Source of the DNA: an uncultured Actinomycetes bacterium
GTDB lineage: Bacteria; Actinomycetota; Thermoleophilia; Gaiellales; JAICJC01
NCBI GenBank assembly: GCA_963709425.1
Contig: CAVPWG010000006.1
Span: 121,913 to 185,912 of the forward strand
Length of the DNA: 64,000 bases
Direction of reading: 5' to 3'
The translations under genes and the position numbers were made by a program. The notes beneath the pieces are model-generated. The model saw only the letters and a program-made list of their open reading frames with translations, did no database searches and had not been told where the DNA came from. Shown in pieces: positions 2,962 through 22,289 of the stretch. How positions within the stretch are numbered: position 1 is the first letter of the stretch; each line of letters opens with the position of its first letter.

Positions 2962-4023
2962 TTAAGGGGCGTGTCCCTCGAGGCCGGCGATGACGTCGAG
3001 CAGGAAGGCCGTGGCCACCGCTCCGTCGACCACCCGGTGGTCGAACGTGCACGAGACGAGCCCGATGTCCCGCACCAGGATGGCTCCGTCGATCACCGCC
3101 GGCCGGGGGGCGATGCGGTGGACGCCGAGGATGGCAACCTCGGGGTGATTAACCAGCGGCGTGGCGAAGAGCCCGCCCAGGCGGCCGGCGCTCGAGACCG
3201 TGAACGTCGAGCCGCGCAGCTGCTCCGGCGTCAGCCTGCCCGCCGCAGCCGCCGCCCCGAGCGCCGAGACCTCGTCCGCGAGCTCGTCGACCGTCTTCGA
3301 TCGAGCGTCGCGCACGACGGGAACGACCAGCCCGGCCTCGGTCTGCATCGCGACGCCGAGGTGGGCGTCGTCGAGGTAGACGATCTCGTTGCGGTCGAGC
3401 CGGGCGTTCAAGGCCGGATGCCGGCCAAGGGCGTCGGCCGTGGCGTGCAACACGAACGGCAGGTAGCTGAGCTCGCCCCGTGTCAGCGAGAGGTGGGTGA
3501 AGTCGCACTCCTCGACCACGGTCACGGCCGGCACCTCGCGATGCGAGCGGGCCAGGTGCTCGGCGATCGCGCGCCTGACGCCGCGCAGCGGCTCGCGCCG
3601 CCCGCCCACCGGCCCAGACGCGGAACGCACGGCAGCCTCGGTCACCGGACCGTCCTCCGCCAGCGCCGCGAGGTCGACCCCCAGCTCCGCAGCGAGCCGG
3701 CGCACGGCCGGCGTCGCCTGCACGCGCGGGGGCGGCGACGCCGCGTCCGGCGCTGCAACATTGGGGTCTGACCCCGTCTTTGCATCGGCGGAGCCGATCA
3801 CGACGAGGAGCTCGCCCACCGGGACGACGGCGCCCTCCTCGGCGAGGATGCGGCTCACGACGCCGGCCGCCGGCGACGGCACCTCGACGGTCGCCTTGTC
3901 GGTCTGGATCTCGACGAGCAGGTCGTCCTCGGCGATCTCGTCGCCGACGGCGACCCGCCAGCGGACGATCTCGCCCTCGGCGACGCCCTCTCCCAGGTCG
4001 GGCATGCGGAACTCGTAGGGCAC
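2962..4023 (-). CDS. 2-oxoacid dehydrogenase E2 (dihydrolipoamide acyltransferase)
   Basis: Lipoyl domain (MPDLGEG...QTDKA), E3-binding ATPAVRRLA, catalytic DHRVVDG; GTG overlaps the E1beta stop. Confidence 0.92.
   Translation of the reverse strand: MPYEFRMPDLGEGVAEGEIVRWRVAVGDEIAEDDLLVEIQTDKATVEVPSPAAGVVSRILAEEGAVVPVGELLVVIGSADAKTGSDPNVAAPDAASPPPRVQATPAVRRLAAELGVDLAALAEDGPVTEAAVRSASGPVGGRREPLRGVRRAIAEHLARSHREVPAVTVVEECDFTHLSLTRGELSYLPFVLHATADALGRHPALNARLDRNEIVYLDDAHLGVAMQTEAGLVVPVVRDARSKTVDELADEVSALGAAAAAGRLTPEQLRGSTFTVSSAGRLGGLFATPLVNHPEVAILGVHRIAPRPAVIDGAILVRDIGLVSCTFDHRVVDGAVATAFLLDVIAGLEGHAP
3754..3784. repeat. Palindromic REP-like element (GGGGTCTGACCCC core), in frame within the E2 linker
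   Basis: Its reverse complement TGCAAAGACGGGGTCAGACCCC matches the copy at 46426 over 22 nt. Confidence 0.7.
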
Positions 4024-4985
4024 TAGAACGACAGTACCCGGTTCACCGCGTCGAGCACACGCTCCGGGGACGGCAGGTAGGCGTCCTCGATCGTCCAGTA
4101 CGGGTACGGGACGTCGTAGCCCGTCACGCGCACGATCGGTCCGCGCAGGTCGAGGATCGCCTTCTCGGCGAGGACGGCCGCGACCTCGGCCGCGAAGCCG
4201 GCGACGCGCGGAGCCTCGGCGACGACCACCGCACGGCCGGTGCGGCCCACCGACTCGAGCAGGGCCGGCTCGTCGAGCGGTTTCAGCGAGCGCAGGTCGA
4301 GCACCTCGACCGACGCGTCGGCTCGGTCGGCCGCCGCCTCGGCGACGGCGACCATGGCGCCGTAGGCGATCACCGTCACATCGGAGCCGGAGCGGGCGAT
4401 GCGGGCCTTCCCGAGCGGCACCACATGCTCGCCCTCCGGCACCTCGCCGCGCGCCGTCCGGTAGATGAGCTTGGGTTCGAGCACGACCACGGGATCGGCG
4501 TCGCGGATCGCCGCGGCGAGCAGGCCCTTGGCGTCGGCCGGCGTCGACGGGATCGCCACCTTGATCCCCGGTGTGTGCACGTAGTACGCCTCCGGCGAGT
4601 CGTCGTGCAGCTCCGGCGCGCGCACCCGCCCGCCGTACGGCATCCGCACGGTGATCGGGAATTCCATCGCGCCACCCGTGCGCCAGCGGTAGCGGCCGAC
4701 GTGGCAGATGAGCTGGTCGAGGCAGGGGTAGGAGAAGGCGTCGTACTGCATCTCGCACACGGGCCGGAAGCCCGCCATGGCGAGCCCGACGGCCGCCCCA
4801 AGGATGCCCGCCTCGGCGAGCGGCGTGTCGACGCAGCGGTCGCTCCCGAACCGGTCGCGTAGGCCGGCGGTGGCCCGGAACACCCCGCCCAGCGTCCCGA
4901 CGTCCTCGCCCATCACCATCACCGACGGGTCGCGCTCCATCTCGGTGTGGAGCCCGTCGTTGACCGCCTCGACGAGCGTCTTCAT
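4023..4985 (-). CDS. 2-oxoacid dehydrogenase E1 beta subunit
   Basis: GEDVG..GGVFRAT, DTPLAEAGI and EPK motifs; ATG overlaps the E1alpha stop. Confidence 0.93.
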   Translation of the reverse strand: MKTLVEAVNDGLHTEMERDPSVMVMGEDVGTLGGVFRATAGLRDRFGSDRCVDTPLAEAGILGAAVGLAMAGFRPVCEMQYDAFSYPCLDQLICHVGRYRWRTGGAMEFPITVRMPYGGRVRAPELHDDSPEAYYVHTPGIKVAIPSTPADAKGLLAAAIRDADPVVVLEPKLIYRTARGEVPEGEHVVPLGKARIARSGSDVTVIAYGAMVAVAEAAADRADASVEVLDLRSLKPLDEPALLESVGRTGRAVVVAEAPRVAGFAAEVAAVLAEKAILDLRGPIVRVTGYDVPYPYWTIEDAYLPSPERVLDAVNRVLSF

Positions 4986-7271: not shown

Positions 7272-7929
7272 CCTCCTCCTCGCCGCCGCGGACGACGAGC
7301 TGATCCTGGGCTGGCGCGACTCGGAGTGGACCGGCATCGCCCCGTCGCTCGAGGAGGACGTCGCCTTCTCGTCGATCGCTCAGAACGAGATCGGCCACGC
7401 CCGGGCGCTGTACGAGCTGGCGGCGCGCGAGCTTGGAGGCGACGCCGACGCGCTCGCCTTCGACCGTCGGCCGGCAGACTACCGCTGCTGCCCGCTGGTC
7501 GAGCTGCGCCGGCTCGACTGGGCCGACACGATCGCCCGCCACTGGCTCTACGAGACGGCCGACGCCGTCCGCATCGAGGACATGGCCGCGTCCGACTGGC
7601 AGGAGCTCGCCGGCCTGGCCCGCAAGATCGAGCGCGAGGAGACCTATCACCGCCTGCACGCCGACATGTGGGTGCGGCGCCTCGGCAACGGCGAGGAGCG
7701 GCCGCGGATCCGGACGGCCCTCGACGCCCTCTGGCCCTACGCGCTGGGGATCCTCGACGGCGCGCTGCGCGAGCGGTTCCGCGAGCGCGTCGCCGGCGCG
7801 CTCGCGTGGTTCGACGTGGCCGGCGAGCCGGGCGCCGAGCACGCCCGCGGGACGCACACCGACGAGCTCGCGCCGTTGTGGGACGAGATGACCATGGTTC
7901 GCCGCTCGGTTCCCGGTGCGCAATGGTGA
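7243..7929 (+). CDS. paaC: Phenylacetyl-CoA epoxidase subunit C
   Basis: ADDELILG.RDSEWTG.AP.LEEDVA, NEIGHAR, EETYH. Confidence 0.92.
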   Translation: MSARAPSRTDLLLAAADDELILGWRDSEWTGIAPSLEEDVAFSSIAQNEIGHARALYELAARELGGDADALAFDRRPADYRCCPLVELRRLDWADTIARHWLYETADAVRIEDMAASDWQELAGLARKIEREETYHRLHADMWVRRLGNGEERPRIRTALDALWPYALGILDGALRERFRERVAGALAWFDVAGEPGAEHARGTHTDELAPLWDEMTMVRRSVPGAQW

Positions 7930-8727: not shown

Positions 8728-9942
8728 TCATTGGTCTGGGGCGGTGTCGATGGTCGGTGCGTGGGCGAGGTAGTGGCCGAGGTGGTGGGCGTCGATCTTT
8801 CCGCCTGGCCACCACAACGGTTCGGTGCTGGTGGTGGCCGTGTCGCCGCGGCCGCCGGTCACGTCCGCGTGCAGGTAGAGCGGTGTGCTGCCGGTGAGCA
8901 GCAGCGCGTGCAGGTGAAGGCGGAGCGGTGGTGGATCTTCGATTGGGGCGCCGGCGCGCTTGGCGACCAGGTGGGCGACGTGGTCGGCCTGCTGAGCGGC
9001 GATCCCGCCCTGCTTGATGGGGAACGTGGTGATGTCTCCGACGGCATAGACGTCAGGGCGACCGGTGACCTGTCCGAGCTCGTTGGTGGGCAGAAACCCG
9101 GCTGGGTTGTGCGGAAGCCCGCCGATCGCGGCGCCGCGCGCCTCAGGCATGCATACCACCCGGTCAACGGCGAGTGCGCGCGCCAGTGCCAGGATCAGGC
9201 GGTTCGGGTACACGCGCACGGGGTAGGTGGCCAGGTGCACGCGGATGTGGTGGTCGTGAAGTAGTTGGGATACCGTCGCACTTACATCCCCGCCGAACTG
9301 AGCGAGCGGTTGGGCCTCGGGGGTCACCAGCTCGAGCGAGACGGCTGGGAGCTTCTTCTGGGCGACGTGGGTGGCGGTCAACAGGGCGAGCTCATACAGC
9401 GGCAGCGCCCACGAGGCGCCGCGCGGAAGCGCGAACGCAACGCGCTTGACGGCCCCGTATTCGATCTGCCGCAGGAGGTCGCGAACGGCATCGGCGTCCG
9501 GCTCTCCGCGGAACGTGAGCGCCCCTTCCAGGACGGGCACGCGAAGAGCGCCGGTGGCGATGACGAGCACATCGTAGGCGAGCGATTCACGGGTATCGGT
9601 GACGGCGAGATGGTTCGTTGCGTCGACGCGTTCCAGCGACCCCGTGACGAGGCGCGCGCCGGCGGCAGCGGCCATGTCTGACAACGCGAAGCGATGAACC
9701 TGGCCGCTGCCGAACGGCACCGCGACCGATGCCGGCCGGTAGCGAAACTCGGACTCCGGCGTGAGCAGCGTGACCTCAACGCGCTCCTCAGCCAGATCAC
9801 GCAGCCCCAGCATCACCTCCAAGGCGCCGACACCGCCACCCACGATCGCCACCCTCAGTCCGCCGCGACCGGATGCGCCAGACAGCTCGGGACTATCGGC
9901 CACCAACGCTAACCATCCTATTTGTCGGCCGGCGCCAAGCAT
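8728..9942 (-). CDS. FAD-dependent oxidoreductase, sulfide:quinone oxidoreductase-like (start uncertain)
   Basis: VAIVGGGVGALE Rossmann motif, YDVLVIATGA, VYAVGD, IKQGGIAAQQAD. Confidence 0.8.
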   Translation of the reverse strand: MLGAGRQIGWLALVADSPELSGASGRGGLRVAIVGGGVGALEVMLGLRDLAEERVEVTLLTPESEFRYRPASVAVPFGSGQVHRFALSDMAAAAGARLVTGSLERVDATNHLAVTDTRESLAYDVLVIATGALRVPVLEGALTFRGEPDADAVRDLLRQIEYGAVKRVAFALPRGASWALPLYELALLTATHVAQKKLPAVSLELVTPEAQPLAQFGGDVSATVSQLLHDHHIRVHLATYPVRVYPNRLILALARALAVDRVVCMPEARGAAIGGLPHNPAGFLPTNELGQVTGRPDVYAVGDITTFPIKQGGIAAQQADHVAHLVAKRAGAPIEDPPPLRLHLHALLLTGSTPLYLHADVTGGRGDTATTSTEPLWWPGGKIDAHHLGHYLAHAPTIDTAPDQ

Positions 9943-10534
9943 ATCCGTGTTCGAGCACGTACGGCCGGCCGGCGATCGACCGCCTCCAGTCGGCCCCGGC
10001 CGTCCACACCGATGGGGTGTGCATCAGCTTCTCGACCGCATCCGCGACGTTCTCACCCCGGAAGATGAAAATGACGTGGTCACGGCCGACATACACGTCA
10101 TGCGACTCCAACTCGGACATCGCGACGGGGTCAAAGGGCGGGCCGTGGCGTACCAGTTCACGGACGCGAGCTCGGTGGTCGCGCCGGATCGGCACTTCCA
10201 CCGACACCCCCGTCGACATCCGAGGCGCCCTCCCGCTCAACTCCGCCGCAAGATTCGCGATCTCAAACAGCCTCCCCGCTCCGTCTAGCGCCACGACGCT
10301 CAACCAGGAACCGTCGTGCTGCTCGACAACCACAGAATGCGAGTCGTCGACGTCATCCCGCCCGGGACGCACCAGCCGCACCCGGACGATGTCATTCGGC
10401 CCCAGAACCCGGTCCCGGAACTCCCCCTCGGCGGAGGCCCCCCGCAGATGCAACCCCGCATCCTCGACGCTGAGCCTCCCCACAAACCGGGGCCCATCCG
10501 ACTCACACCACACCACCGCGAACCCTTCCGCCAT
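9893..10534 (-). CDS. Hypothetical protein; C-terminal domain homologous to the small protein at 16797..17089
   Basis: GPPFDP...ELESHDVYVG.DHVIFIFRG...YAWRR; GGGGG RBS before the ATG. Confidence 0.65.
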   Translation of the reverse strand: MAEGFAVVWCESDGPRFVGRLSVEDAGLHLRGASAEGEFRDRVLGPNDIVRVRLVRPGRDDVDDSHSVVVEQHDGSWLSVVALDGAGRLFEIANLAAELSGRAPRMSTGVSVEVPIRRDHRARVRELVRHGPPFDPVAMSELESHDVYVGRDHVIFIFRGENVADAVEKLMHTPSVWTAGADWRRSIAGRPYVLEHGYAWRRPTNRMVSVGGR

Positions 10535-11028
10535 CCCCCCACGCTACCCACACAGCGCGGGTCGAGCATCAGGGCGCACCCCGAACACCGATCCGTAGAA
10601 GCTCCCGCACCGCGACCGAATCTTCTGTGGATTTGTGGTCTTGCGCCGCGAACGTGCGTTGAAGCGGCTGTCCGCCGTGCACCGTGGCCGCTAAGACGAT
10701 CACCCCTGACAGCCGCCGGAGCTGCGCAAAGCGGCCGCCGGTAAGCTCGCGACTCGCGAAGCGGTCTCGGCCTCCAACCTGCTCAGGTCGGTGTGGATGG
10801 TCATGTGACTGCTCCTGTGCTGTGGCCGCGGGGGGCTACCTCGAGCCTGTTCTCGCCGAGCACGCGGCGATCGTGGACGCTCGAGGAGCGCGATGCGGCC
10901 CGGGCGGCCGAGGCGCTTGGCGAGCACTTGCACCGATCCGACTACTAGCCCCTACGAGGGGTTTCCCACAGCCGCGATCAGGCCCGGCCCCGATGCCGGA
11001 ACGGGGTGGTCTGCCGATACTGGGACCG

Positions 11029-11044
11029 GTGAGAGTTCTCTCAC
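11029..11044. promoter_or_regulatory. Palindrome GTGAGAG-TT-CTCTCAC (TGAGA-N4-TCTCA) upstream of the response regulator
   Basis: Perfect 7-bp inverted repeat 25 nt before ATG 11070; the same core occurs at 13137. Confidence 0.55.
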
Positions 11045-11069
11045 GTCTAGAGGCCACACTGAGAGCCAG

Positions 11070-11753
11070 ATGAACATCCTGGTCGTCGAGGACGAAGCCC
11101 TGATCACGGACTTCCTGCGCCGTGGGCTCGAGGCTGAGGGATACGCCGTCGACACGGCGGCGCGGGGCGAGGACGCCCTCGCCTGCCTGCGTGCGCGCCC
11201 GCCGGACCTCGTGATCCTGGACGTGATGCTCCCCGGCATGGATGGGTTCGAGGTCCTCGGCGCGATCCGCGCGAGCGACCCCGACCTGCCCGTCATCATG
11301 CTGACGGCCCGCGGCGAGGTCGCCGACCGGGTGCGCGGGCTCGACCTCGGCGCCACCGACTACCTCGGCAAGCCGTTCGCGTTCGCCGAGCTCCTGGCGC
11401 GGATACGCGCCCGCACCCGGAGTCCGGCGCAGAACGGAAAGCCCGCGTCGTCGCTCTCCGTCGGGCCCGTGACGCTCGACCTCCTGGCCCGCGAGGCCGA
11501 GCTCGACGGCCGCCGCGTCGAGCTCTCGGCCCGCGAGTTCGCGCTGCTCGCGTACCTCATGCGGCATCCGGGCCAGGTGCTGTCGCGCCAGCAGATCCTG
11601 AACGGCGTCTGGGGCTACACCTTCGACCCACGCTCGAACCTGGTCGACGTCTACGTCGGATACCTGCGCCGCAAGCTCACGACGAACGGCCGGTCGCCGA
11701 TCGAGACGGTGCGCGGCATGGGCTACAGGATGGCGCGCGAGAGGGCGGCGTGA
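11070..11753 (+). CDS. OmpR/PhoB-family response regulator (MprA/CusR-like)
   Basis: MNILVVEDE, LDVMLP, LTAR, KPF, winged helix ending TVRGMGY. Confidence 0.93.
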   Translation: MNILVVEDEALITDFLRRGLEAEGYAVDTAARGEDALACLRARPPDLVILDVMLPGMDGFEVLGAIRASDPDLPVIMLTARGEVADRVRGLDLGATDYLGKPFAFAELLARIRARTRSPAQNGKPASSLSVGPVTLDLLAREAELDGRRVELSAREFALLAYLMRHPGQVLSRQQILNGVWGYTFDPRSNLVDVYVGYLRRKLTTNGRSPIETVRGMGYRMARERAA

Positions 11754-13168
11754 AGGGCGGGCTCGCGATCCGCACCCGGCTTGCGATCGTGAGCGCCACG
11801 CTCGCGGTGGGAGTGCTCGCCGCCGGGCTGCTCACGGTCTATCTCATCGATCGCCGCCAGGTCGACCAGTCGCTCGCGGCCGATGCGCAGGGTGCGGCGC
11901 GAGATCTCGCCGGGTCAGGCCAGCGCACGGGCGACGCTGCCGACGAAACGAGGCCCGAGAACGACGACCGCCTCGTGACCGCCTATCTCCAGGCTCGGGG
12001 CGGGTCGGGACAGCTGCTGGCCATCATCCCGCCAAGCGGGTTGCCCAGGGCGAACAGCCACCTCGCGCAGCGGTTGTGGGCTCGCACCGATATCCCGGTC
12101 GGGGGGGCCAAGCGGGTCGAGATCGCCGGGGAGGAATACGTCGCGTCGGCGGCCCGCCGTGACGGAGCGCGGTTCGTGGCCGCCGTGCCCGCGGCCGAGG
12201 CCGAGGCCGGCGTCCGCACGCTGCTCGACGCGATGCTCATCGTCTGCCTCGTCGGCCTTGTTCCCGCCACCGGGGCGGCATGGCTCGTGACGCGCCGGGC
12301 CCTCGCCCCGCTGTCGCGCATCGCCCAGCGCGCGTCGCGCGTCACGGCCGGCGACCTCTCCGTGCGGATGGGGTCGGTGCGGTCGCACGACGAGATCGCC
12401 GACGTCGCGATCGCGATCGACGCCATGCTCGACCGTCTCGAGGGCGCGTTCGCCGCCCAGCGGCGCTTCGTCCACGACGCGTCGCACGAGCTGCGAACGC
12501 CGCTCACGATCGCGCGCGGACACCTCGAGACGGCGCTCGTTCCGGGCCACCACCCGGCCGAGCTCGACGCGGCCGTTCGCGTCGCGATCGCCGAGCTCGA
12601 CCGGATGGGACGGCTGGTCGAGAGCCTTTTGCGGCTGGCGCGCACCGGCGCCGACGGCCGGCCGACTCGCGAGCCCGTCGACGTCGGCGAGCTCGCCCGC
12701 CGAGTCGTGACGCGGTCCACGGTCCTCGGCGACCGGGCCTGGAGCGTGGACGCCGCGCCGAGCGCGGTGATCGAGGGCGACGGCGACGCCGTCGAGCAGG
12801 TGCTCCTGAACCTCATCTCGAACGCGGTGCGGCACACGGCCGCCGGGCAGGCGATCAGCGTGTGCGTCGAAGCGAACGGTGACACCGTCACCCTGGAGGT
12901 GGCTGACTCCGGGGAGGGGATCGACCCCGCCCTCCTGCCGACGCTCTTCGACCGGTTCACCAGGGCGGATGCCGCGCGTGGGCGCGCCACCGGCGGGACC
13001 GGCCTGGGGCTTGCGATCTGCCGCGCCATCGTCGAGGCGCACGGCGGGACGATCTCGGCCGCGAGCGCACCGGGACGCGGCGCGACGTTCACCGTCGAGC
13101 TGCCGCGGATGGCAATTGCGGGCCCCGCCGAGGCCATGAGAACCGTCTCACACCCGGCTCACGCCTAG
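11750..13168 (+). CDS. Sensor histidine kinase (2 TM, HAMP, HisKA, HATPase)
   Basis: DASHELRTPL H-box, NLISNAVRH, DSGEGI, GTGLGL. Confidence 0.93.
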   Translation: MKGGLAIRTRLAIVSATLAVGVLAAGLLTVYLIDRRQVDQSLAADAQGAARDLAGSGQRTGDAADETRPENDDRLVTAYLQARGGSGQLLAIIPPSGLPRANSHLAQRLWARTDIPVGGAKRVEIAGEEYVASAARRDGARFVAAVPAAEAEAGVRTLLDAMLIVCLVGLVPATGAAWLVTRRALAPLSRIAQRASRVTAGDLSVRMGSVRSHDEIADVAIAIDAMLDRLEGAFAAQRRFVHDASHELRTPLTIARGHLETALVPGHHPAELDAAVRVAIAELDRMGRLVESLLRLARTGADGRPTREPVDVGELARRVVTRSTVLGDRAWSVDAAPSAVIEGDGDAVEQVLLNLISNAVRHTAAGQAISVCVEANGDTVTLEVADSGEGIDPALLPTLFDRFTRADAARGRATGGTGLGLAICRAIVEAHGGTISAASAPGRGATFTVELPRMAIAGPAEAMRTVSHPAHA

Positions 13169-13173
13169 CTCAC
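13137..13173 (+). promoter_or_regulatory. Putative OmpR-family binding site: TGAGA-N4-TCTCA plus CTCAC direct repeats at 11-bp spacing
   Basis: CTCAC at 13147, 13158 and 13169, upstream of the apbE operon. Confidence 0.6.
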
Positions 13174-13240
13174 CCCCGCTTCGTACGGTGGGAGATGACG
13201 CCGCACGACCGCGGCGCCCCCGACCGTAGGAGGAACGTCC

Positions 13241-13609
13241 GTGACCGTCCACCCGTCAGTTGCCTTCGCGGCCTTCGCCGCCGGGCTTGTCGTCGGCGGC
13301 GGTGCCTACGCAGCGAGTCACGACCTCGGGCTCGGCGACGGCCTGGCGGCCTCCGCCGACGCCCGAGCGCGGCTCGGCCAGGACATGCCGGTCGGCCGCC
13401 ACGGCCGCCGCGTGCGCCTCCTGGGATGGCACGCCCCGCGTGTGCCCCACCTGAAGCCGCCCCGTCCACGCGCGCCGGTGCTTCAGGTCGTGTCGGCGCC
13501 GGCGGTTGCGCCGGCACCGGTCGCGGCACCGGTCACGAGCACGAGCCCGGCCCCGCCGGTCACGAGAACGAGCCCCACGGGCGGGGACGATGGAGGAGAG
13601 GATGACTAG
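13241..13609 (+). CDS. Small secreted/anchored Pro-rich protein with PVTSTS and PVTRTS motifs
   Basis: RBS AGGAGG; hydrophobic N-terminus; stop overlaps the next start. Confidence 0.7.
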   Translation: MTVHPSVAFAAFAAGLVVGGGAYAASHDLGLGDGLAASADARARLGQDMPVGRHGRRVRLLGWHAPRVPHLKPPRPRAPVLQVVSAPAVAPAPVAAPVTSTSPAPPVTRTSPTGGDDGGEDD

Positions 13610-13979
13610 CACCGGACTTCGCATCTATACGACCGTCATCGCGCTGATCTGCGGCGCCGCCGTGGCCTGGTCGATCCATCAGGCATCCATGGCCTCGTCG
13701 TGGCAGGCGGACGCCCGCTCGTGGCACGCGGTCGCCCAGCGCACGGTGACCCACGACCGCGTGACGACCAACCGGATGCGCCATCTGGTGATCCGGTACA
13801 ACACGCTCGTCGTCCGCACCCGGCGCTCCGAGCGGAAGCTGCTCGCAGGCATGCGCCGCGCGCAGACGGCCGGCGCTCAGCTGCCTTCGGTGCCCGCGTT
13901 CGCAAGCGCGGCGGCTCCGACATCGGCGGCGCCGGTTGCCGCGCCCGCCCCCGCCCCGCCGACCACGCACACGAGCTGA
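13602..13979 (+). CDS. Small membrane-anchored protein with helical region and Pro/Ala tail ending PTTHTS
   Basis: RBS GGAGGAG; N-terminal TM segment (IYTTVIALICGAAVAWSI); TGATG coupling to apbE. Confidence 0.72.
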   Translation: MTSTGLRIYTTVIALICGAAVAWSIHQASMASSWQADARSWHAVAQRTVTHDRVTTNRMRHLVIRYNTLVVRTRRSERKLLAGMRRAQTAGAQLPSVPAFASAAAPTSAAPVAAPAPAPPTTHTS

Positions 13980-14881
13980 TGCGGACGGCCGCGAACATCG
14001 AGACGACCGCCGCGTGGGAATGGCGCGCCACCGGCACCACCTGGCGCATCCATCACACCGGCGGCGTCGACTCCGGCCTGGCCGCGACGATCGCGCAGGC
14101 GGTCGAGCGCGACGAGGCCCGCTGGTCGCGCTTCCGGCCCGACAGCGAGGTCGCGCGCCTGAACGCGTCGGCCGGCCGGCCGGTGCCCGTCTCACCTGCG
14201 ACGCTCGACCTGGTCGAGGCGTGCGTGTACTGGATCCGGTCGACGGGCGGCGTCTTCCAGCCGCTCGTCGGCGGCGCGCTTGTCGCGTGGGGCTACCGCC
14301 GCAGCCTGGCCGACCGCAAGGCCTACGCCGAGTCGAGCCCCGACCCGCGCCGGCTGGAGGGCCGTCCCCAGGTCGACCGTGCCAGGGGAACGGTGCAGAT
14401 CCCGGCCGGGACGAGGCTCGACCTGGGAGGGATCGCAAAGAGCTGGATGGCGTGCCGGGCCGCGGCGCTCGTGCGCGGGCGGTGTGACGACCTCACGATC
14501 CTTGTCGACGCGGGCGGCGACCTCGTCGCGGCACGCGGCCGGCACCTCGTGGCGGTCGAGGACCCTCGCGACCACGACGCGCCGCCGATCGCCCGGGTCT
14601 GGGTCGGCGAGGGACAGGGGATCGCCACGTCCGGGTACGGCCGGCGCCGATGGCAGAACGGCGACGGCCGCCCGGCCCACCACCTGATCGATCCCGAGAC
14701 CGGTGCGCCCGGGCCGAGGACGCATGCCACGGTGATCTCCGACGATCCGGTCGCCGCGGACGTCCTGGCGAAGCTCCTCACGCTTCGGCCCGGGCGGATC
14801 GCCGCGCTGGACGAGGCCGCGATGGTGATGAGCGACGGCGTCCTGCGGACGACGGCCGCATGGACGGAGGTGGCGGAGTGA
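13979..14881 (+). CDS. apbE: FAD:protein FMN transferase (ApbE family)
   Basis: WSRFRPDSEVARLN, LDLGGIAKSW, VDAGGDL, IATSG, HHLIDPETG. Confidence 0.9.
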   Translation: MRTAANIETTAAWEWRATGTTWRIHHTGGVDSGLAATIAQAVERDEARWSRFRPDSEVARLNASAGRPVPVSPATLDLVEACVYWIRSTGGVFQPLVGGALVAWGYRRSLADRKAYAESSPDPRRLEGRPQVDRARGTVQIPAGTRLDLGGIAKSWMACRAAALVRGRCDDLTILVDAGGDLVAARGRHLVAVEDPRDHDAPPIARVWVGEGQGIATSGYGRRRWQNGDGRPAHHLIDPETGAPGPRTHATVISDDPVAADVLAKLLTLRPGRIAALDEAAMVMSDGVLRTTAAWTEVAE

Positions 14882-15456
14882 TCCTCTGGGATGTGGCCCG
14901 GGCAAGCGCCTTCGTCGCCTTCGCCTGCTACACGCTGGTCGTCGCCTGGGGGATCGCGCTGAGCGCTCGCGTATGGCGCCCGCCGGCTCCTCATATGGCC
15001 TACCACCGGTTCCTGGCGTCGCTCGGGCTGGTCGCGGTCGGGATCCACATCGGCGCGCTGATGCTCGACCGCTACGCGCGCGTGACGGTTGCGTCCCTGG
15101 TCGGGCTGGATCCGCGGCCGGGCGTGGTGGTCGGCGCCGCCGCGCTGTGGCTCGTGCTCGCGCTCCCGCTGTCGTTCAGGCTGAAGCAGGCGCGGTGGAT
15201 GAGCCAGCGGGCCTGGCGCTCGCTGCACTACTTCGGCTACGCGGTCTGGGCGCTCTCGCTGGTGCACGGCATCGCCGCCGGGACCGACTCGCGGTCGCTC
15301 TTCGCGCTCGTGATCTACGGCGCATCGGCCGCCATCGTCGGCGGGGCGGCGTGGTACCGATGGCTCGAGCGCCCGGCCCCCGCCCCCAGGCGTGCGCCCG
15401 CCCGTGACCGGCTGCCGGCCCGGGCGGCGCTCGAGATCGACGGGGGCGAGCAGTGA
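14878..15456 (+). CDS. Ferric reductase-like (MsrQ-like) heme membrane protein
   Basis: Multiple TM helices with four His (YHRF, IHIG, WRSLHYFGY, LVHGI). Confidence 0.82.
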   Translation: MILWDVARASAFVAFACYTLVVAWGIALSARVWRPPAPHMAYHRFLASLGLVAVGIHIGALMLDRYARVTVASLVGLDPRPGVVVGAAALWLVLALPLSFRLKQARWMSQRAWRSLHYFGYAVWALSLVHGIAAGTDSRSLFALVIYGASAAIVGGAAWYRWLERPAPAPRRAPARDRLPARAALEIDGGEQ

Positions 15457-16571
15457 GCGCGGCGCGGTCGGTGACGGTGGTCGGAAACGGCGTTGCCGGC
15501 TACGCCTGCGCGCGCCGCCTCGCCGAGAGCGGCGCAGCGGTGACGCTGATCGGCCCGGGCCTCCCGTGCGACCGGCCTCCGCTGTCGAAGCGGGCGCTCC
15601 TGCGCGGCTCGGCGCCGTACCTGGCGACGGCCGCCGGCCTCGTCGAGTCCGGCATCCGCCATCTCGACGGCTGGGCGATCGATCTCGACCTCCCCCGCCG
15701 GCGGCTCGGCGTGCAGTGCGCGGCGCGGGGCGAGATCCACGAGCACGTCTTCGAGGAGCTCGTGTGGGCGACCGGCCTGCGCCCGACGCGGCCCCCGATC
15801 CCCGGAATCGGGGTTGCCCACCAGAACGCCGACCCGGCAGGTCTCGAGGAGCTTCTTCCCCGCCTCGAGCGGCCGGGTCGGCGGGTGGCCGTCATCGGAG
15901 CCGGGCTGATCGGGACGGAGACCGCCGCCACGTTGTCGGCGGCGCATCGCGTCACGCTGGTCGAGAGGGCCGAGCTGCCGTTGAGCCGGTTCCACAGCGC
16001 CGTGGGAGCCGAGGCGAACCGGGTGCTCGCGGGCCTCGGCGTCGCGTTCGCCGGCGGCTGCAACCTCGAGCGCATCGTGCCGATTCACGGCGGATCGCAG
16101 ATCATCGAGACGTCGACCCACGGGCGGATCGCGGCCGACGTCGTGATCGTCGCCGCCGGGGTGGCCTCGACGCTGCCGCCCGCTCTCGGCCCCGGGCCGA
16201 CCGTCGACACCGACGAGACGCTCGCGGTCCGAGGCCTCGACGGCGTCTGGGCGTGCGGCGACACGGCGGCCTTCCCGCACCCGCGGTTCGGCCGCATCGC
16301 GATCCCGCACTGGGACAACGCGCGGGCCGGCGGCGACCACGTCGCGCGCGCGATCCTGGGGTCGCGTGCGCCGTTCGAGCGGGATCCGTACTGGTTCTCG
16401 GACATCGGCCCGCTGCGCGTGCAGCAGGTCGGCTTCGAGCCGGCCGTGTGTGAATGGTCCGTGCGCGACGGGCTCCACGTCGGTTGCGCCGGTGACGGCC
16501 GCACCGCGTGCGTCCTGCTTCTGAACTCCCCCCACCGATTGAACGATGCCCGCCGCCTGGTTGCGGCCTGA
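15453..16571 (+). CDS. FAD-dependent NAD(P)H:ferredoxin reductase (putidaredoxin-reductase type)
   Basis: VVGNGVAG, DRPPLSK, VIGAGLIGTE, VWACGD, HWDNA, PYWFSD. Confidence 0.88.
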   Translation: MSAARSVTVVGNGVAGYACARRLAESGAAVTLIGPGLPCDRPPLSKRALLRGSAPYLATAAGLVESGIRHLDGWAIDLDLPRRRLGVQCAARGEIHEHVFEELVWATGLRPTRPPIPGIGVAHQNADPAGLEELLPRLERPGRRVAVIGAGLIGTETAATLSAAHRVTLVERAELPLSRFHSAVGAEANRVLAGLGVAFAGGCNLERIVPIHGGSQIIETSTHGRIAADVVIVAAGVASTLPPALGPGPTVDTDETLAVRGLDGVWACGDTAAFPHPRFGRIAIPHWDNARAGGDHVARAILGSRAPFERDPYWFSDIGPLRVQQVGFEPAVCEWSVRDGLHVGCAGDGRTACVLLLNSPHRLNDARRLVAA

Positions 16572-16595
16572 CCACCCCCGAGAGGAGACGACCCG

Positions 16596-16790
16596 ATGGA
16601 CACCCAGCTCATCATCGACCCGGACGCCTGCGTCGGCTACGGCGAGTGCGTCGCCGAGGACGCCGCCGCCGTCGAGCTCGACGAGAGCGGCTGCGCGCGG
16701 GCCCTGGTGCAGCTGCTTCCCCGCGACCGGGCGGAGCGGCTCTGCGCCGCGTGCCCGGTCGGCGCCATCACTCTCAAGCCGGCGGCGTAG
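16596..16790 (+). CDS. Single-cluster ferredoxin (CxxYxxC...CP)
   Basis: DPDACVGYGECV...AACPVGAI; RBS GAGGAG. Confidence 0.88.
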   Translation: MDTQLIIDPDACVGYGECVAEDAAAVELDESGCARALVQLLPRDRAERLCAACPVGAITLKPAA

Positions 16791-16796
16791 CGCCGG

Positions 16797-17089
16797 CTAC
16801 CGTCGCCATTCGAACACGGCGGTCAGCGCCTCGGGCGCCTTGACCGCGCCGGCCAGCTCGATCGACCTGAAGCTGGAGGTCGTGGTCGTCCGCCAGGCGG
16901 CGCACGATGGCCTCCGGGTCCTTGCCCTCGAACAGGAAGGCGACGTGCCTGCGGGCCGATGAAGACCGTGTGCCGTTCGAGCTCGGTCGCCGCGATGTCG
17001 TACGGCGGATCGCCGGAGAACGTCTCGAGCAGCTCCTCGCGGCGGGCGGGGTCGATCTGAGCGACGTAGAGGATCTTGGTCGCGGCCAT
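16797..17089 (-). CDS. Small hypothetical protein with two apparent frameshifts; homologous to the C-terminus of 9893..10534
   Basis: Reassembled across three frames: MAATKILYVAQIDPARREELLETFSGDPPYDIAATELERHTVFIG/RHVAFLFEGKDPEAIVRRLADDHDLQLQ/ELAGAVKAPEALTAVFEWRR. Confidence 0.6.
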
Positions 17090-17137
17090 CCGCGGTCGAG
17101 GATAGCGCTGCGGCCGGGCGGTTGTGCGCGCCGGTGG

Positions 17138-18979
17138 TCATGCCGGCCGCCTCCCAGCGCCCGCAGCGCGTTCAGGATGACGGCGACGTCGATGACCTCC
17201 TGGAACACCGCGCCCGACACCGGCGGCAGGTATCCGGCGGCGGCGAGCGCCATCCCCAGGATGCTGAGCCCCAGACCGGCGATGACGCTCTGGCGGGCGA
17301 TCCGGATCGATCGCCGGCCGATGCTCACCGCGCGGGCCACGCGATCGATGCGGTCGACCGCGATCACCGCGTCGGCGGCCTCCGACGCGACGGTGGCGCC
17401 GGCCGCGCCGAGCGCGATGCCGACGTCCGCGAGCGCCAGGGCGGGCGCGTCGTTGATCCCGTCGCCGACCATCACGATCGGCGTCAGGTCCGTCGCGGGC
17501 GGCGAGCGCGCGGACGAGCTCGAGCTTGTCCTGGGCGACTGCCGGGCGTAGATCCGGTCGACGCCGGCCGCGAGGCCGACGGCCTCTGCGGTGGTCTCGA
17601 CGTCTCCCGTGGCGAGGGCGACGTATCGGATGCCCGACCTGCGCAGGTCGGCCACGAGTCCCGCCGCGTCGTCGCGCAGCCGGTCCGACATCACGATGAC
17701 GGCGACGACGCGGCCGTCGGCAGCCACCGTCACACGCGCCTCACCGGGCCCGGCGGCGGCTCATGGTCGCACAGGGCCTCCGGCTCGGTCGCGTGCGCCG
17801 CCACGAACGCCGAGCTCCCGACCGCGACCCGCCGGCCGTCGACGTCGCCCGCGATGCCCTGGCCGGCATCCTCGCGCACGCCGCTCGGCATGCTCAGCCG
17901 GAGTCCGCGAGTCCGACGCCTCCCGGACGAGCGCCGCGGCCATGGCGTGCGAGGAGAACTGGTCGAGCGACGCCGCGATCCGCAGCGCCTCGCCGGCCGG
18001 CACACCGTCGGTGGTCAGGATCCGGTCGACGTGCGCCGTCCCCAGCGTCAGCGTCCCGGTCTTGTCGAAGAGCACGGTGCGCGCCCGGCCCAGCGCCTCG
18101 ATGACGGCGCCGCCCTTCACGATCACGCCCTCGCGCGCCGCGCGGGAGACGCCCGCGATGAACGCGATCGGCGCCGCCAGGATCAGCGGGCACGGCGTCG
18201 CAACGACCAGCACTGCGACGGCCCGCCGAGGGCTGCCGCTCATCGCCCACGCCGAGCCGGCCACGACGAGCGTCAGCGGGCAGGAAGACGGCGGCGTAGC
18301 GGTCGGCCATCCGGACGAACGGCGCCTGGCTCCGTTCCGCGTCGCGCACGAGCCGCACGAGCGCGGCATACGCGCTGCCCGATGCCGGTGTCGCGGCCTC
18401 GAGCTCGAAGGCCTCGCCGGCGTTCGTGCAGCCGCCGCGCGCGGTCGCGCCGGCGTGCAGCGTGCGCGGCAGCGGCTCGCCGGTCAGCGCGGAGTCGTCG
18501 ACGATGGCCTCGGCGCTCAGGACGACGCCGTCGGTGGGGATCACCTCGCCGGCGCGGACGAGCAGGCGGTCTCCGATCTGCACCTGCTCGACTCCGATCC
18601 GTTCGACGGCCTCGCCGTCGATCCGGTTCGCCCACTTGGGCGCCCGGTCGACCAGGAGCGTCAGCTCCCGGCGGGCTCGCCCCTGCGCGAAGAGCTCGAG
18701 CGCGTTCCCGCCGGCGAGCATCAGCGCGATCACGGCCCCCGCCAGGTACTCGCCCAGCGCCAGCGCGCCGGCCATGGCGAGGAGCGCGATCGCATCGACG
18801 CCGACGTCACCGTGGAGCAGCGACCTGCCGACCGCGATGGTGAGCGGGATCAGGAGGGCGAGTGTCGACGCCGCCCAGATCGCGCTTGCGGCGAGGTCGT
18901 GGGCTCCCGCGAGCTCGAGCACGCCTCCCGCGACCAGGCTCGCGGTCGCCGCGCCCGGCAGGAGGAGGCGTGTCTCCAT
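17138..18979 (-). CDS. Heavy-metal P1B-type ATPase (P1B-5-like) with several frameshifts (probably artefacts; pseudogene possible)
   Basis: TGEP, VVATPCPLILAAP, DKTGTLT, MVGDGINDAPALA and FQEVIDVAVILNALRAL are spread over 4 frames; stop position inferred. Confidence 0.8.
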
Positions 18980-19016
18980 GGCCGTGCGCGGCAGACCGGG
19001 CATCGCGTCCTGGCGG

Positions 19017-19454
19017 TCAGGCCTCGATCGCAGACGACTCTGCGGTCTCGAGCCCGTGTCCGGTGTAGCCACCCGGGACGACGAGCACCGGGCAAGCAGC
19101 GATCGGCAGCAGGCGCTGCGTCGTGCTTCCCAGGAGCGCGCCGACGAACGGCGCTCGGCCGCGGCTGGCGATCACGATCAGGTCGGCCTCGGCTTCCCGG
19201 GCGACGTCGGAGAGCATCTCGGCCTCGTGGCCGACCAGCGAGTCGCGGATGATGATGGAGGTCTCGATGCCGGATCGGGCGAGGTGCTCGACGTGAGCGT
19301 GCAGCGAGGTCTCGATCGCGGTCTCCAGCGCGTGCGTCCGGGCATGTGCGACCACGATACGGGCGCCTTCCCGGCGTGCGTTTTCCTCGGCGACCGGGAT
19401 CGCCCGGTTGGAGCCTTCGGATTCATCGAGTGCGAGGATGATCGTGCGGTACAT
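19017..19454 (-). CDS. Universal stress protein
   Basis: TIILALDES, DLIVIASRGR...LLGSTTQRLL..A.CPVLVV. Confidence 0.9.
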   Translation of the reverse strand: MYRTIILALDESEGSNRAIPVAEENARREGARIVVAHARTHALETAIETSLHAHVEHLARSGIETSIIIRDSLVGHEAEMLSDVAREAEADLIVIASRGRAPFVGALLGSTTQRLLPIAACPVLVVPGGYTGHGLETAESSAIEA

Positions 19455-19646: not shown

Positions 19647-22289
19647 CTACCACGACTTGAGCCGCGCGTGGGGCACGGTGTGTGCCACGCGGACGCGCGC
19701 ATCTACGGCCACGCAGTCGTCGGCGAGCGCGATCACCGGGTTCAGGTCGAGCTCGGCGACCTGCGGGAAGTCCTGTGCGAGCGCGGCGAGTCGAACGACG
19801 AGGTCGACAAGGGCGCCCGTGTCGGCCGCGGTCTTGCCGCGGAATCCGGCGACGAGCTCGCCGGCCTTGCCCGACGTCACGAGCTCGTGGGCGTCCACGT
19901 CGGTGAGTGGGAGTGTTGCGAATGCCGTGCCCCCGATCAGCTCGGCCATCGTGCCGCCTGGGCCGAACGCGACCACCGGCCCGAAGACCGGGTCTTGCAC
20001 GACTCCCGCCAGGAGCTCGATCCCTCCGGAGACCATCGGCTGGAGCACGGCCGGGTAGCCGACGCAGCCGAGGGCCGCGTCGAGCGCGGCGATGTCGCCG
20101 ACGCCCAGGATCACGCCGCCGCGGTCGACCTTGTGTACGCCCGCCTCGCCCATCTTGACGGCCAGCGGGTAGTGCAGCGCCTGGGCCGCCTCGAGCGCCT
20201 CGGGTCGGTTCGTGACCGTGCGCTGCGTGACGCACGGCACGCCGTAGGCGGTGAGGAGCCGGCGGGCGGCGTCTGCGGCCAGCCACGCGTCGGGGGCGGT
20301 CTCGAGCGCCGAGTCGACAACGGCCTGGGCCGCGGCCCGGTCGACGGCGGGCTCGTGGACGCGCCCATGTGGCCGGCGCAGCCATTCCGCTCGCTCGACG
20401 GCCCGGGCCAGAGCTCCGGCGGCCGCCTCCGGGTAGCGGTAGGACGGCACCGATCCGCCGTGGGGGGTGGCGCCGGGGGTGACGGCGAGGATCGGCTTTG
20501 TCGGCTCGTCGCGATCGTAGGCATCGGCGATGGCCCGCACCACGTCCTCGGGTATCGCCAGCGCCGTGGGCGCCGCGAGGACGACGAGCGCGTCGACGTC
20601 GGCATCGGCGAGGAGGAGCGGCACGACCGCGGCATACGTCGCGGCTGTCGCCGAGGCGATCATGTCGACGGGGTTGGCCACGGTCGCCTCGTCGGGAAGG
20701 AGCGCGGCGAGGTGCCCCCGCGTGTGCTCGTTGAGCGGCGCGAGCTCGAAGCCCAGCTCGGCACAGGCGTCGGCGCAGAGGATCGCGAGCCCGCCCGCGT
20801 TCGACAGGATCGCAACCCGGCGGCCGCGGGGCAGCGGCTGGGTCGCAACCAGCTGGAGGACGTCGCACAGCTCCTGCAGGGTGTGGGCCCGGATCACGCC
20901 CGACTGGCGAAACAGAGCCTCGGCCGCCCGATCGGACCCGGCCAGGGCGGCAGTGTGTGACAGCGCCGCCCGCTCCCCCATCGTGGTCGAGCCGCTCTTC
21001 AGCGCCACGATCGGCTTTCGCCTCGCGACCCGGCGGGCGATCCGTGCGAAGCGGCGGGGATTCCCGAACGACTCCAGGTAGAGCGCGATCGCGGCCGTGT
21101 CGTCGTCCTCTTCCCAGTACTCGAGCAGGTCGTTGGACGACACGTCCGCCTTATTGCCGATCGAGACAAACGCGGACATGCCCAAGCCGCGCTGGGAGGC
21201 CTCATCGATCACCGCCAGGCCGACGGCGCCGCTCTGCGACGAGATCGCGACGTTCCCCGGCTCGAACTGGCGGCGCGCGAACGTCGCGTTCAGCGCGGGC
21301 CCGGCGGCGAACACGCCGAGGCAGTTCGGTCCGACCATGCGCGCGCCGTGCGAGCGGACGAGTGCGAGCAGGTCGGCCTCGGCCTGTGCTCCGGCCGGGC
21401 CTGTCTCGGCGAATCCGGCAGAGATCACGCAGACCGCCTTTGCGCCGGCTGACAGCGCCTCGGCGACCGCACTCTGGACGGCGCCGGACGGCACCGCGAT
21501 GACCGCAAGGTCGATCGGCACCGGCAGCCCTGCGACCGAGGCGTGCGCCGGATGGCCGGCGACGGGCTCGCCCGAGCGGTTCACGGGAAACACCGAGCCC
21601 GTGTAGCCGGCCTCGAGGATGTTCCTGAAAACGGCGCCCCCGATCGAATCCTCGCGCGCGGACGCGCCGACGACGGCCACCGACGTCGGCTCGAGCACGG
21701 GCCGCAGCGACGGCCCCACCGCGGTGTGATCGCGAAGGTCGACGGCCTCCCGGTAGCGCTCGTCCGAGCGGATCGGGAACTCGACTCGGATCTCGCCGCC
21801 TTCGTCGCTGTGGCTGACCTTGAATCCGGAGTCCTCGAAGACCCGCAGCATCGGTCGGTTCTCGGGCAGCACCTCGGCGACGAAGCGTTCGATCCCGACT
21901 GTGCCGGCCTCCTCCGCGATCTGCTCGAGCAGCCGAGTGGCGATCCCGTCGGACTGTCGGTCGTCAGCCACGGCGAACGAGACTTCCGCCAGGCGGGGGT
22001 CGCGCAGGCGGATGAAGCTGGCGACGCCGATGACTCGGTCGCTCTCGTCCGGGCCCACGGCGCTGGCCAGGAGCACGCCTTCGTTCGTCCAGTCCGGGTC
22101 GAGGAAGCTCGCGACCATCGCATCGTCGACGCGGCGAACGCCGTGGAATCGCAGGCGCATGCTCGTGGGCGAGAGTTCCGCCAGGAACCGCCGCACGGCG
22201 TCCGCGTCGTCTTCTGAGGGCGGCCGCAGGCGAAGCGTGCGCCCGCCGCGGAGGATGACGTCGTGAACGCGTTGCCCGGTAGCGCTCAT
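19647..22289 (-). CDS. GNAT + NDP-forming acyl-CoA synthetase fusion (Pat/PatA-like)
   Basis: N-terminal GNAT (AEVSFAVADD..GIAT), CoA-binding VAVVGAS, GPNCLG, SQSG, SIGNKAD, SHTAALAG, ATP-grasp ELDLNPV. Confidence 0.9.
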   Translation of the reverse strand: MSATGQRVHDVILRGGRTLRLRPPSEDDADAVRRFLAELSPTSMRLRFHGVRRVDDAMVASFLDPDWTNEGVLLASAVGPDESDRVIGVASFIRLRDPRLAEVSFAVADDRQSDGIATRLLEQIAEEAGTVGIERFVAEVLPENRPMLRVFEDSGFKVSHSDEGGEIRVEFPIRSDERYREAVDLRDHTAVGPSLRPVLEPTSVAVVGASAREDSIGGAVFRNILEAGYTGSVFPVNRSGEPVAGHPAHASVAGLPVPIDLAVIAVPSGAVQSAVAEALSAGAKAVCVISAGFAETGPAGAQAEADLLALVRSHGARMVGPNCLGVFAAGPALNATFARRQFEPGNVAISSQSGAVGLAVIDEASQRGLGMSAFVSIGNKADVSSNDLLEYWEEDDDTAAIALYLESFGNPRRFARIARRVARRKPIVALKSGSTTMGERAALSHTAALAGSDRAAEALFRQSGVIRAHTLQELCDVLQLVATQPLPRGRRVAILSNAGGLAILCADACAELGFELAPLNEHTRGHLAALLPDEATVANPVDMIASATAATYAAVVPLLLADADVDALVVLAAPTALAIPEDVVRAIADAYDRDEPTKPILAVTPGATPHGGSVPSYRYPEAAAGALARAVERAEWLRRPHGRVHEPAVDRAAAQAVVDSALETAPDAWLAADAARRLLTAYGVPCVTQRTVTNRPEALEAAQALHYPLAVKMGEAGVHKVDRGGVILGVGDIAALDAALGCVGYPAVLQPMVSGGIELLAGVVQDPVFGPVVAFGPGGTMAELIGGTAFATLPLTDVDAHELVTSGKAGELVAGFRGKTAADTGALVDLVVRLAALAQDFPQVAELDLNPVIALADDCVAVDARVRVAHTVPHARLKSW

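Follow-up and report, generated by a model that had tools for sequence, protein, structure and literature searches.

An eight-gene ApbE operon in an uncultured Gaiellales bacterium with small conserved tail proteins as candidate flavinylation substrates

The window analyzed here is a 64,000-nucleotide stretch of DNA from an uncultured Gaiellales bacterium (contig CAVPWG010000006.1, positions 121,913 to 185,912), and our subject is an eight-gene operon within it that surrounds a gene for an ApbE-family FAD:protein FMN transferase (FAD, flavin adenine dinucleotide; FMN, flavin mononucleotide). Domain scans located all eight genes on the forward (+) strand and returned the same eight-part anatomy that an earlier note on this DNA had described. 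At the upstream end, an OmpR-type response regulator (11070..11753; Response_reg, E 1.1e-32, and Trans_reg_C, E 4.3e-28) is followed by a sensor histidine kinase (11750..13168; HAMP, HisKA, and HATPase_c). Downstream of these are two small single-pass proteins, sp1 (13241..13609; 122 aa), which has an acidic tail (type A) and a GTG start behind AGGAGG, and sp2 (13602..13979; 125 aa), a stalk protein (type B) with conserved homologs. Then come the ApbE itself (13979..14881; 300 aa, PF02424 E 7.7e-41), a ferric-reductase-domain-like membrane protein with five predicted helices and four histidines (14878..15456; 192 aa, PF01794 below cut-off), an NAD(P)H:ferredoxin reductase-type flavoprotein (15453..16571; 372 aa, Pyr_redox_2 E 3.6e-39), and a small single-cluster ferredoxin (16596..16790; 64 aa, Fer4_15 E 4.6e-6). 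The coordinates in the earlier note were right overall, save that the first residue of the response regulator (MNILVVEDE) lies at 11070 and not at 11029.

Five of the operon junctions are overlapping, by 4 nt between the regulator and kinase genes, by 8 nt between sp1 and sp2, and through stop/start couplings at sp2/ApbE (TGATG), ApbE/membrane protein (GTGA), and membrane protein/reductase (GTGA), with gaps of 72 nt at kinase/sp1 and 24 nt at reductase/ferredoxin. The reading frames of sp2, ApbE, the membrane protein, the reductase, and the ferredoxin are backed by the GC content at third codon positions (GC3), while for sp1, where GC3 alone is ambiguous, the backing comes from the AGGAGG site and conservation. 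In NCBIfam, the best match of the response regulator is to the heavy-metal type cztR/silR/copR (215.7 bits, under the 279.2 cut-off), and that of the kinase is to cztS/silS/copS (236.2 bits, under the 292.55 cut-off). Consensus scans for promoters and terminators over 10400-17200 gave no sites, a result that is uninformative in a high-GC organism. Four soil or paddy RNA-Seq runs contain 5-7% of the sampled words. The contigs from these runs belong to relatives (~92-99% identity) and lie mostly over the regulator genes, and in one run (X3), pieces at a depth of ~3 extend across the sp1/sp2 and ApbE/membrane-protein junctions. As DNA carry-over is possible, this is a weak hint of operon transcription, and no meaning attaches to the stretches without coverage.

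The operon arrangement is not a matter of chance, because all eight genes are found in the same order in 11 of the 41 relatives searched, each of these 11 being from the same genus, with identities across these loci of 65-95% for ApbE, 48-92% for sp1 (10 loci), and 56-80% for sp2. Tallies for the 41 genomes, which include the unpublished genome G015, place ApbE in 32/41. Moreover, genomes of the genus give up to seven ApbE matches each, and the ApbE gene stands beside a copy of the membrane-protein gene in five of seven cases in G004 and in 4/4 in G011. Five same-genus genomes (G004, G011, G014, G017, and G020) each carry four to five paralogous ApbE/membrane-protein modules, and the window genome has one. 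The reductase and ferredoxin are both found in 3/7 of the paralogous modules fetched and the sensor pair in 2/7, and the reductase/ferredoxin pair adjoins the membrane protein in loci L092, L095, L096, and L043. Because paralogous modules bring the same four parts together (ApbE, membrane protein, reductase, and ferredoxin), the association that was proposed for them from the window alone is supported. To look class-wide, 20 loci from 20 Thermoleophilia genomes in seven families, one per genome, were chosen by hand among the top membrane-protein profile matches, which makes the sample a selected one. In 19/20 of these loci, ApbE directly adjoins the membrane protein, giving 23 ApbE modules, and a reductase is nearby in 9/20. 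The membrane-protein profile itself matches 133/301 Thermoleophilia genomes, with up to seven copies each. Gaiellales have multiple copies of the module, whose range extends to Chloroflexota and Dormibacterota, and in three Chloroflexota loci (L083, L085, and L086) the same type-A/type-B pair precedes apbE. In L085, a membrane-anchored exported CXXCH protein (7385-7849, + strand; Haem_bd, PF14376, E 1.7e-35) lies between apbE and the membrane-protein gene and ends in an acidic ...ENDDD, like type-A proteins, and L086 has the same layout. In a near-identical metagenome-assembled genome (MAG; L054), the kinase and ApbE matches fall in several out-of-frame pieces, which is consistent with indel errors in a long-read MAG and calls for caution with single-genome frameshift calls here.

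The ApbE scores 140.8 bits against PF02424 (cut-off 25.6 bits) and matches 13 solved ApbE sequences in a phmmer search (best 1.5e-19), its domain aligning from residues 12-40 to the mature N-termini of these proteins. Here, we noticed that Ser218 of ATSG and His235 of HHLIDP are invariant in 19 members of the ApbE clade, and that the position aligned to the catalytic aspartate (AAD) is D or E across the same 19. With the triad of the V. cholerae active site given as S241, H257, and D285 (PMC12052999), the window ApbE looks catalytically competent, the equivalence of the two active sites being drawn by alignment. It has no signal peptide, as its start overlaps the sp2 stop and the upstream in-frame stretch is without a hydrophobic segment. 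A relative from the same order (G025) holds a canonical example of such a system, in which the ApbE gene (L089, ~3700-4620, - strand; G025:C6) directly follows those for an anchored 2xFMN_bind protein and an FNR-fused MsrQ-like membrane protein, and this canonical ApbE also has no signal peptide. The pairing of an ApbE that has no signal peptide with neighboring substrates that seem to be exported may hold generally in the Gaiellales order.

What this ApbE lacks is a conventional substrate. The window genome is 100% complete and has a single ApbE, and profile searches of it found no FMN_bind (PF04205), DUF2271 (PF10029), DUF3570 (PF12094), NqrB/RnfD (PF03116), or Flavodoxin_4 (PF12682) protein, with neither of its two FMN_red proteins carrying an [ST]GA[ST]-type motif. 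Genome-wide, D..[ST]GA[ST] occurs seven times in ~772,000 residues of likely open reading frames (ORFs), which we judged, without a computed expectation, to be near what chance would give. Searches of the whole genome for [PA][TVS]T.TS (8 matches) and T[RHK]TS (20 matches) gave no convincing further substrate in an ORF set from which a GC filter had removed sp1 and sp2 themselves. In the operon, there is no FMN_bind domain and no protein with [ST]GA[ST]. FMN_bind is likewise found in 0/25 genomes of the genus (G015 among them), despite their ApbE genes, and its profile matches 0/20 of the class-wide loci. By these searches, the ApbE is an orphan in the window genome, with no known substrate family in usable form, and the earlier note, which had reckoned with a canonical FMN_bind substrate elsewhere as the finding that would overturn its proposal, is not refuted on this point. 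Orphans without an identified substrate amount to ~4% of apbE genomes in the survey of Meheust et al. (2021; PMC8238504).

This turned our attention to the two small proteins. For sp1, no Pfam or NCBIfam family matched, and an alignment of 11 sequences has H4-P5-S6, H27-D28, W63-H64, and the C-terminal PVT(R)TSPxGGDDGG-DD as its invariants. Within the last of these is the motif T108-R109-T110-S111 (13562..13573, + strand), in which T108, T110, and S111, along with the P112 that follows, are invariant. The tail of sp2 reads ...PTTHTS-COOH, and its closing T122-H123-T124-S125 (13965..13976, + strand), with an invariant S125, is a candidate flavinylation site, to which PVTRTSP is the type-A counterpart in sp1. 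An AlphaFold2 model of sp2 (predicted local distance difference test, pLDDT, 83.8) has one helix at residues 3-92 and then a 33-residue unstructured tail. The close homologs of sp2 comprise 107 metagenome cluster representatives, which are all called 'hypothetical protein' where their source names them and none of which has a Pfam domain, and 90/107 of them end in T[RHK]TS(PxP). Nine small proteins searched against Pfam at E up to 10 gave only noise, and an ESM Atlas search returned unnamed 'hypothetical' clusters only. Nor did literature searches find a paper that links ApbE to small tail proteins of this kind or that deals with the ApbE of Gaiellales, Thermoleophilia, or Chloroflexota, which suggests, as far as those searches go, that the tail proteins are unreported in print.

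In 22/23 of the class-wide modules, the stop codon of a type-B small single-pass ORF falls between -12 and +34 nt from the estimated apbE start, usually as TGATG. The small ORFs are thus kept beside apbE in nearly all of the modules from the 20 Thermoleophilia genomes, as well as in Chloroflexota, and the failure of conservation that the earlier note had named as a possible refutation did not materialize. All 22 type-B ORFs end in [ST]-x-x-S at most four residues from the C-terminus. Eleven modules have TKTS, TRTS, or TRSS, whereas L130, L133, L134, and L135 have SGGS, L132 has TGGS, and L131 has TSGS. Chloroflexota tails read PVTRTRGS, PITRTRRS, and PVARTRSSR. More conspicuously, when 18 type-B proteins are aligned, no residue besides Met1 and the C-terminal serine is invariant, and the tail that is THTS in the window usually reads T[RK]TS outside it, with SGGS in certain lineages. 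A profile built from these 18 relatives matches 364 representative clusters, and among the best 150 of these 364 matches, the final residue is S in 111 and the final four are T[KRH][TS]S in 79. In paralogous Gaiellales modules, the type-B proteins, for which no homology to sp2 was detected, carry one or two HATT[QR]TSP sites. A type-A protein is found in 18/23 modules, with a membrane anchor, a basic helix, and an Asp/Glu/His-rich tail that ends in Asp, and in L130-L132 (family f7) it has an extra ~80-aa beta-rich domain (...TVTF...TYVF...ARV..PVT.V) before the acidic tail, without a Pfam match.

Selection acts on the tail as a peptide, because the terminal serine is encoded by both AGC and TCN codons and the arginine by CGG, CGC, AGG, and AGA across loci. 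The same mixture of serine and arginine codons rules out that the tail is kept mainly as a Shine-Dalgarno site for apbE, though AGG codons in five loci may additionally serve as a ribosome-binding site. In FMN_bind proteins of same-order relatives, the flavinylation sites read [SG]GA[ST]-x-T-S in 6/6 cases, and the tails thereby share the [ST]-x-T-S half. At the sequence level, the tails thus retain the pair of hydroxyl residues that bounds [ST]GA[ST], and certain lineages retain glycines as well, with the SGGS ending reading as a derived form of [ST]GA[ST]. Hence, where the earlier note saw no motif in the small proteins, this stands for [ST]GA[ST] itself but not at the family level, given the C-terminal [ST]-x-x-S with its invariant serine. 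As for possible fusions of sp2 with ApbE, two long database proteins (P0227 and P0240) join a type-B N-terminus to a partial ApbE but have junk C-termini and look frameshifted, and they were rejected. A prediction of the complex of ApbE, FAD, and two Mg with sp2 residues 86-125 scored 0.95, while unrelated controls scored 0.76 and 0.90, and as this gives no verdict it was not used.

In the membrane protein, His43, His57, His117, and His130 are invariant among 14 sequences, with spacings of 14 and 13. This is the spacing in Escherichia coli MsrQ (R77/H91 and H151/H164), the same as in its NOX counterparts, and the NOX inner-heme ligand sits at the Arg77 position (PMC12525009). Here, His43 of the window protein aligns with Arg77 of MsrQ, and since histidine replaces arginine, this points to the two-heme core of NOX and not to the one-heme-plus-FMN core of MsrQ and STEAP. 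NCBIfam gives a weak match to MsrQ (E 2.8e-4; 20.5 bits against a 130-bit cut-off). A Foldseek search found no match at E <= 0.001, the best being SpNOX (probability 1.00, TMq 0.53, E 0.15), and with VIA-align the top structures were cytochrome b561 (Z 10.9), STEAP1, STEAP4, and SpNOX (Z 10.1-10.2), and NOX5 (Z ~10). That these top matches are two-heme or heme-flavin transmembrane reductases is suggestive at the level of models. Taken by its four invariant histidines, the protein plausibly has a NOX-type bis-heme core, which agrees with its first description as a four-histidine ferric-reductase-like protein. With SpNOX, NOX5, and STEAP, it shares the four-histidine pattern, and these are its closest, though statistically not decisive, structural matches, but it differs from them in having no fused dehydrogenase domain and just five helices. 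With E. coli MsrQ/Fre (PMC12525009), it shares a split design, in which a soluble cytosolic reductase feeds a ferric-reductase-family membrane protein. In contrast, MsrQ binds one heme and a non-covalent cytoplasmic FMN (Arg77, His151), as described in the same source, and the window protein has all four histidines as in NOX, which implies two hemes. Also unlike the MsrQ system, the window operon has no MsrP partner and does have ApbE. The electron donor would be the reductase and ferredoxin, whose sequences fit the pattern of a class-I-type three-component donor. Here, the reductase has a Pyr_redox match (E 4.3e-11) besides Pyr_redox_2, corresponding to two dinucleotide-binding sites, adjoins the small Fe-S ferredoxin, and is weakly matched in NCBIfam to the ferredoxin-NAD+ reductases AndAa and HcaD.

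As to how these parts may work together, we favor a split NOX-type conduit that is fed by NAD(P)H through the reductase and ferredoxin, with the small stalk proteins as domain-less ApbE substrates, a proposal that we regard as evenly poised between right and wrong. In this scheme, cytoplasmic NAD(P)H would reduce the flavoprotein reductase, which would pass electrons to the small ferredoxin, and the ferredoxin would in turn reduce the inner heme of the five-helix bis-heme membrane protein, with the electrons exiting through the outer heme. ApbE would attach FMN to the C-terminal serine (or a neighboring threonine) of sp2, and probably also of sp1, and the flavin would be carried next to the heme protein by a flexible Pro/Ala-rich tail that caps a long helix. 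A metal ion is our leading guess for the final acceptor, because of the heavy-metal-type sensor pair (below cut-off), a conserved neighboring P1B ATPase, and the Asp/Glu/His-rich type-A tails. In their own right, sp1- and sp2-type proteins could be natural flavin-tagged stalks and a new class of ApbE substrate without a flavin-binding domain, with FMN on the terminal serine of T-[RKH]-[TS]-S, a tentative idea toward which we lean slightly skeptical. In this reading, a signal-less ApbE that is translationally coupled to its substrate might modify the tail while its final residues are still inside the cell, so that FAD would not have to be exported and the terminal site would be accounted for, or it might do so in the cytoplasm in place of the NOX dehydrogenase flavin, and the tethered flavin would be a swinging arm between the bis-heme membrane protein and a metal or other acceptor. 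Flavin-tagged stalks of this kind have a likeness in the FMN_red substrates, whose flavin is attached to a C-terminal extension that lacks structure (Huang et al., 2024; PMC11334425), and in the 7-residue Flavin-tag, with engineered flavin-tags working best at protein termini (PMC12052999); from both, with the flavin on an unstructured terminal tail, it follows that a short linear motif is enough for ApbE. However, these known tails have a canonical [ST]GA[ST]-like motif, whereas the window family has T-[RKH]-[TS]-S and no flavin-binding domain, and the FMN_red tail folds back onto such a domain (PMC11334425), of which the stalk proteins have none.

A number of observations weigh against the favored conduit and its stalk substrates. 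Flavinylation of sp1 and sp2 is a candidate property drawn from sequence. Most tails are without a G-A core, G-to-A and A-to-V substitutions lower flavinylation (PMC12052999), and in tails rich in Ser/Thr, [ST]-x-x-S carries little information. With no domain to bind it, a flavin would be exposed and oxygen-reactive. The idea that the beta-hairpin units of the paralogous type-B proteins are mini-FMN_bind domains was dropped, given an hhalign probability of 0.03 against FMN_bind with alignments that are small, and, again with small alignments, hhalign detected no homology between sp2 and the paralogous type-B proteins (probability 0.17). For the membrane protein, the PF01794 match spans profile positions 3-120 of 121 at just 16 bits (E 0.028), against a 28-bit cut-off, the AlphaFold2 model with its five helices is of moderate confidence (pLDDT 68.7), and VIA-align scores of Z ~10 are not decisive when Z ~13 is advised for helical bundles. 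The compared genomes are kin, and counts among them are not independent events. Finally, in none of the 23 class-wide modules does ApbE have a signal peptide, and yet the flanking charges weakly put the tails outside.

This last point bears on which side of the membrane the flavin would be. The earlier note had the flavinylated proteins displayed on the surface, which the analysis did not support, as every clade ApbE is without a signal peptide and the sp2-type C-terminal parts are strongly basic, with 10 to 23 positive against 2 to 10 negative charges in 16/18 type-B sequences and +7 and +8 in the other two; because of both features, the tails could be cytoplasmic. The flanking charges weakly suggest that the small proteins are N-in/C-out, the positive charge of the N-flank being equal to or greater than that of the C-flank in 15/18 type-B sequences. 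By analogy, the exported Haem_bd c-type heme protein of the Chloroflexota modules also favors an outside location. Three arrangements are possible, namely a flavin that is outside, a tail that is modified before export, and a cytoplasmic flavin in place of that of the NOX dehydrogenase.

The cytoplasmic arrangement amounts to the same conduit with stalks that are N-out/C-in and tails modified inside by the signal-less ApbE, where the tethered FMN would stand in for the missing flavin of the NOX dehydrogenase domain and relay electrons to the inner heme from the ferredoxin or from some other reductase. The missing signal peptides and the strongly positive type-B C-terminal parts fit well with such an arrangement, the cytoplasm offers FAD, and in E. 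coli MsrQ, an FMN on the cytoplasmic side passes on electrons that come from a cytosolic reductase (PMC12525009). Nevertheless, we consider it rather unlikely, since a histidine at the MsrQ Arg77 position makes the inner site probably one for heme and not a flavin pocket, and a ferredoxin, as a one-electron donor, needs no flavin adaptor. Signal-peptide-like N-termini on paralogous type-B proteins, the 15/18 balance of flanking charge, and the exported c-type heme protein with the same acidic tail in Chloroflexota modules speak against it as well.

A different possibility is that ApbE spares the small proteins altogether, and either flavinylates the membrane protein or is engaged in non-covalent flavin handling (FAD hydrolysis or FMN delivery), with sp1 and sp2 as subunits for structure or assembly or as accessories that bind metal. 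In Treponema pallidum, Ftp/ApbE acts as a FAD pyrophosphatase (PMC4767422), members of the MsrQ family are able to hold FMN without a covalent bond (PMC12525009), and the Asp/Glu/His-rich type-A tails would suit metal binding. Still, the membrane protein has no conserved [ST]GA[ST]-like site, with its G-T/S/A-D loop found also in the canonical FNR-fused relative of G025, and an invariant C-terminal serine that is translationally coupled to apbE across phyla would be left unexplained, and for these reasons we think this alternative unlikely, too. Pro/Ala/Thr-rich segments are typical O-glycosylated linkers in Actinobacteria. The Thr/Ser tail might then be a site for some other modification (O-glycosylation or phosphorylation) or a docking peptide, tied to ApbE only by operon membership, and the lack of a G-A core in the motif would agree with this. 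We hold it to be quite improbable, however, as linker glycosylation needs neither an invariant terminal serine nor a fixed [ST]-x-x-S register that becomes SGGS, and neither the operon nor the orthologous loci, which were mapped with the eight operon proteins only, showed a glycosyltransferase or kinase gene for it.

Around the operon, its 3' end meets a P1B-type heavy-metal ATPase gene on the reverse strand (16774..19072, -), which is interrupted into three ORFs with E1-E2_ATPase and Hydrolase pieces and has TIGR01512/TIGR01525 as its best NCBIfam matches. The breaks are a frameshift near 18300-18370 and an in-frame stop at 17761-17763, while the orthologue in L033 is in a single frame, and thus the gene is either a pseudogene or is affected by long-read indel or base errors in the MAG. 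This ATPase gene neighbors the operon in both subclades of the genus, and the universal stress protein gene beside it (19017-19454, -; Usp, E 1.5e-23) is kept there in the close subclade (L032-L035, L054-L057, and L061). Further on is an 880-aa ORF (19647-22289, -) that, by eye, looks like a GNAT acetyltransferase fused to CoA-binding and ATP-grasp domains, of the Pat-like or ADP-forming acyl-CoA synthetase type. On the opposite side, a Pyr_redox_2 flavoprotein (8728-9942, -) weakly resembles type III sulfide:quinone reductase (55.9 bits, where the cut-off is 525 bits). A relative of this flavoprotein is also near the operon in several orthologous loci, and the adjacent 213-aa ORF (9893-10534, -) has no Pfam or NCBIfam family.

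Among known systems, those most similar are the actinobacterial 'MsrQ-like' clusters (Meheust et al., 2021; PMC8238504), in which apbE is beside a six-helix-type two-heme ferric-reductase-family membrane protein with a presumed cytosolic NAD(P)H donor and a suspected role in extracytosolic or metal reduction. In contrast to these clusters, the window operon has no FMN_bind protein, no fused NAD-binding domain, and a PF01794 score below cut-off. Its reductase and ferredoxin are proteins in their own right, and two small single-pass proteins whose tails are conserved belong to the module. As defined in that survey, a cluster joins a PF01794 gene to a signal-peptide-bearing ApbE or an FMN-binding protein, and the filter would have dropped the window ApbE because it has no signal peptide. 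Judged on its genes, the window system would work like an MsrQ-like flavinylated system, but it falls outside this operational definition.

Taken in its wider context, the module is a concrete candidate for one class of substrate-less apbE orphans, and the candidate substrate is a four-residue C-terminal tail on an unannotated family of stalks of ~100-150 aa with 364 representative clusters. If this is true, the recognition rule of ApbE would widen beyond [ST]GA[ST], a covalent flavin could work without a binding domain, and the tail would be a ready-made natural flavin-tag for protein engineering. Moreover, the Gaiellales and other Thermoleophilia, which are abundant in soil and almost uncultured, would gain a multi-copy transmembrane redox system that is possibly linked to metals.

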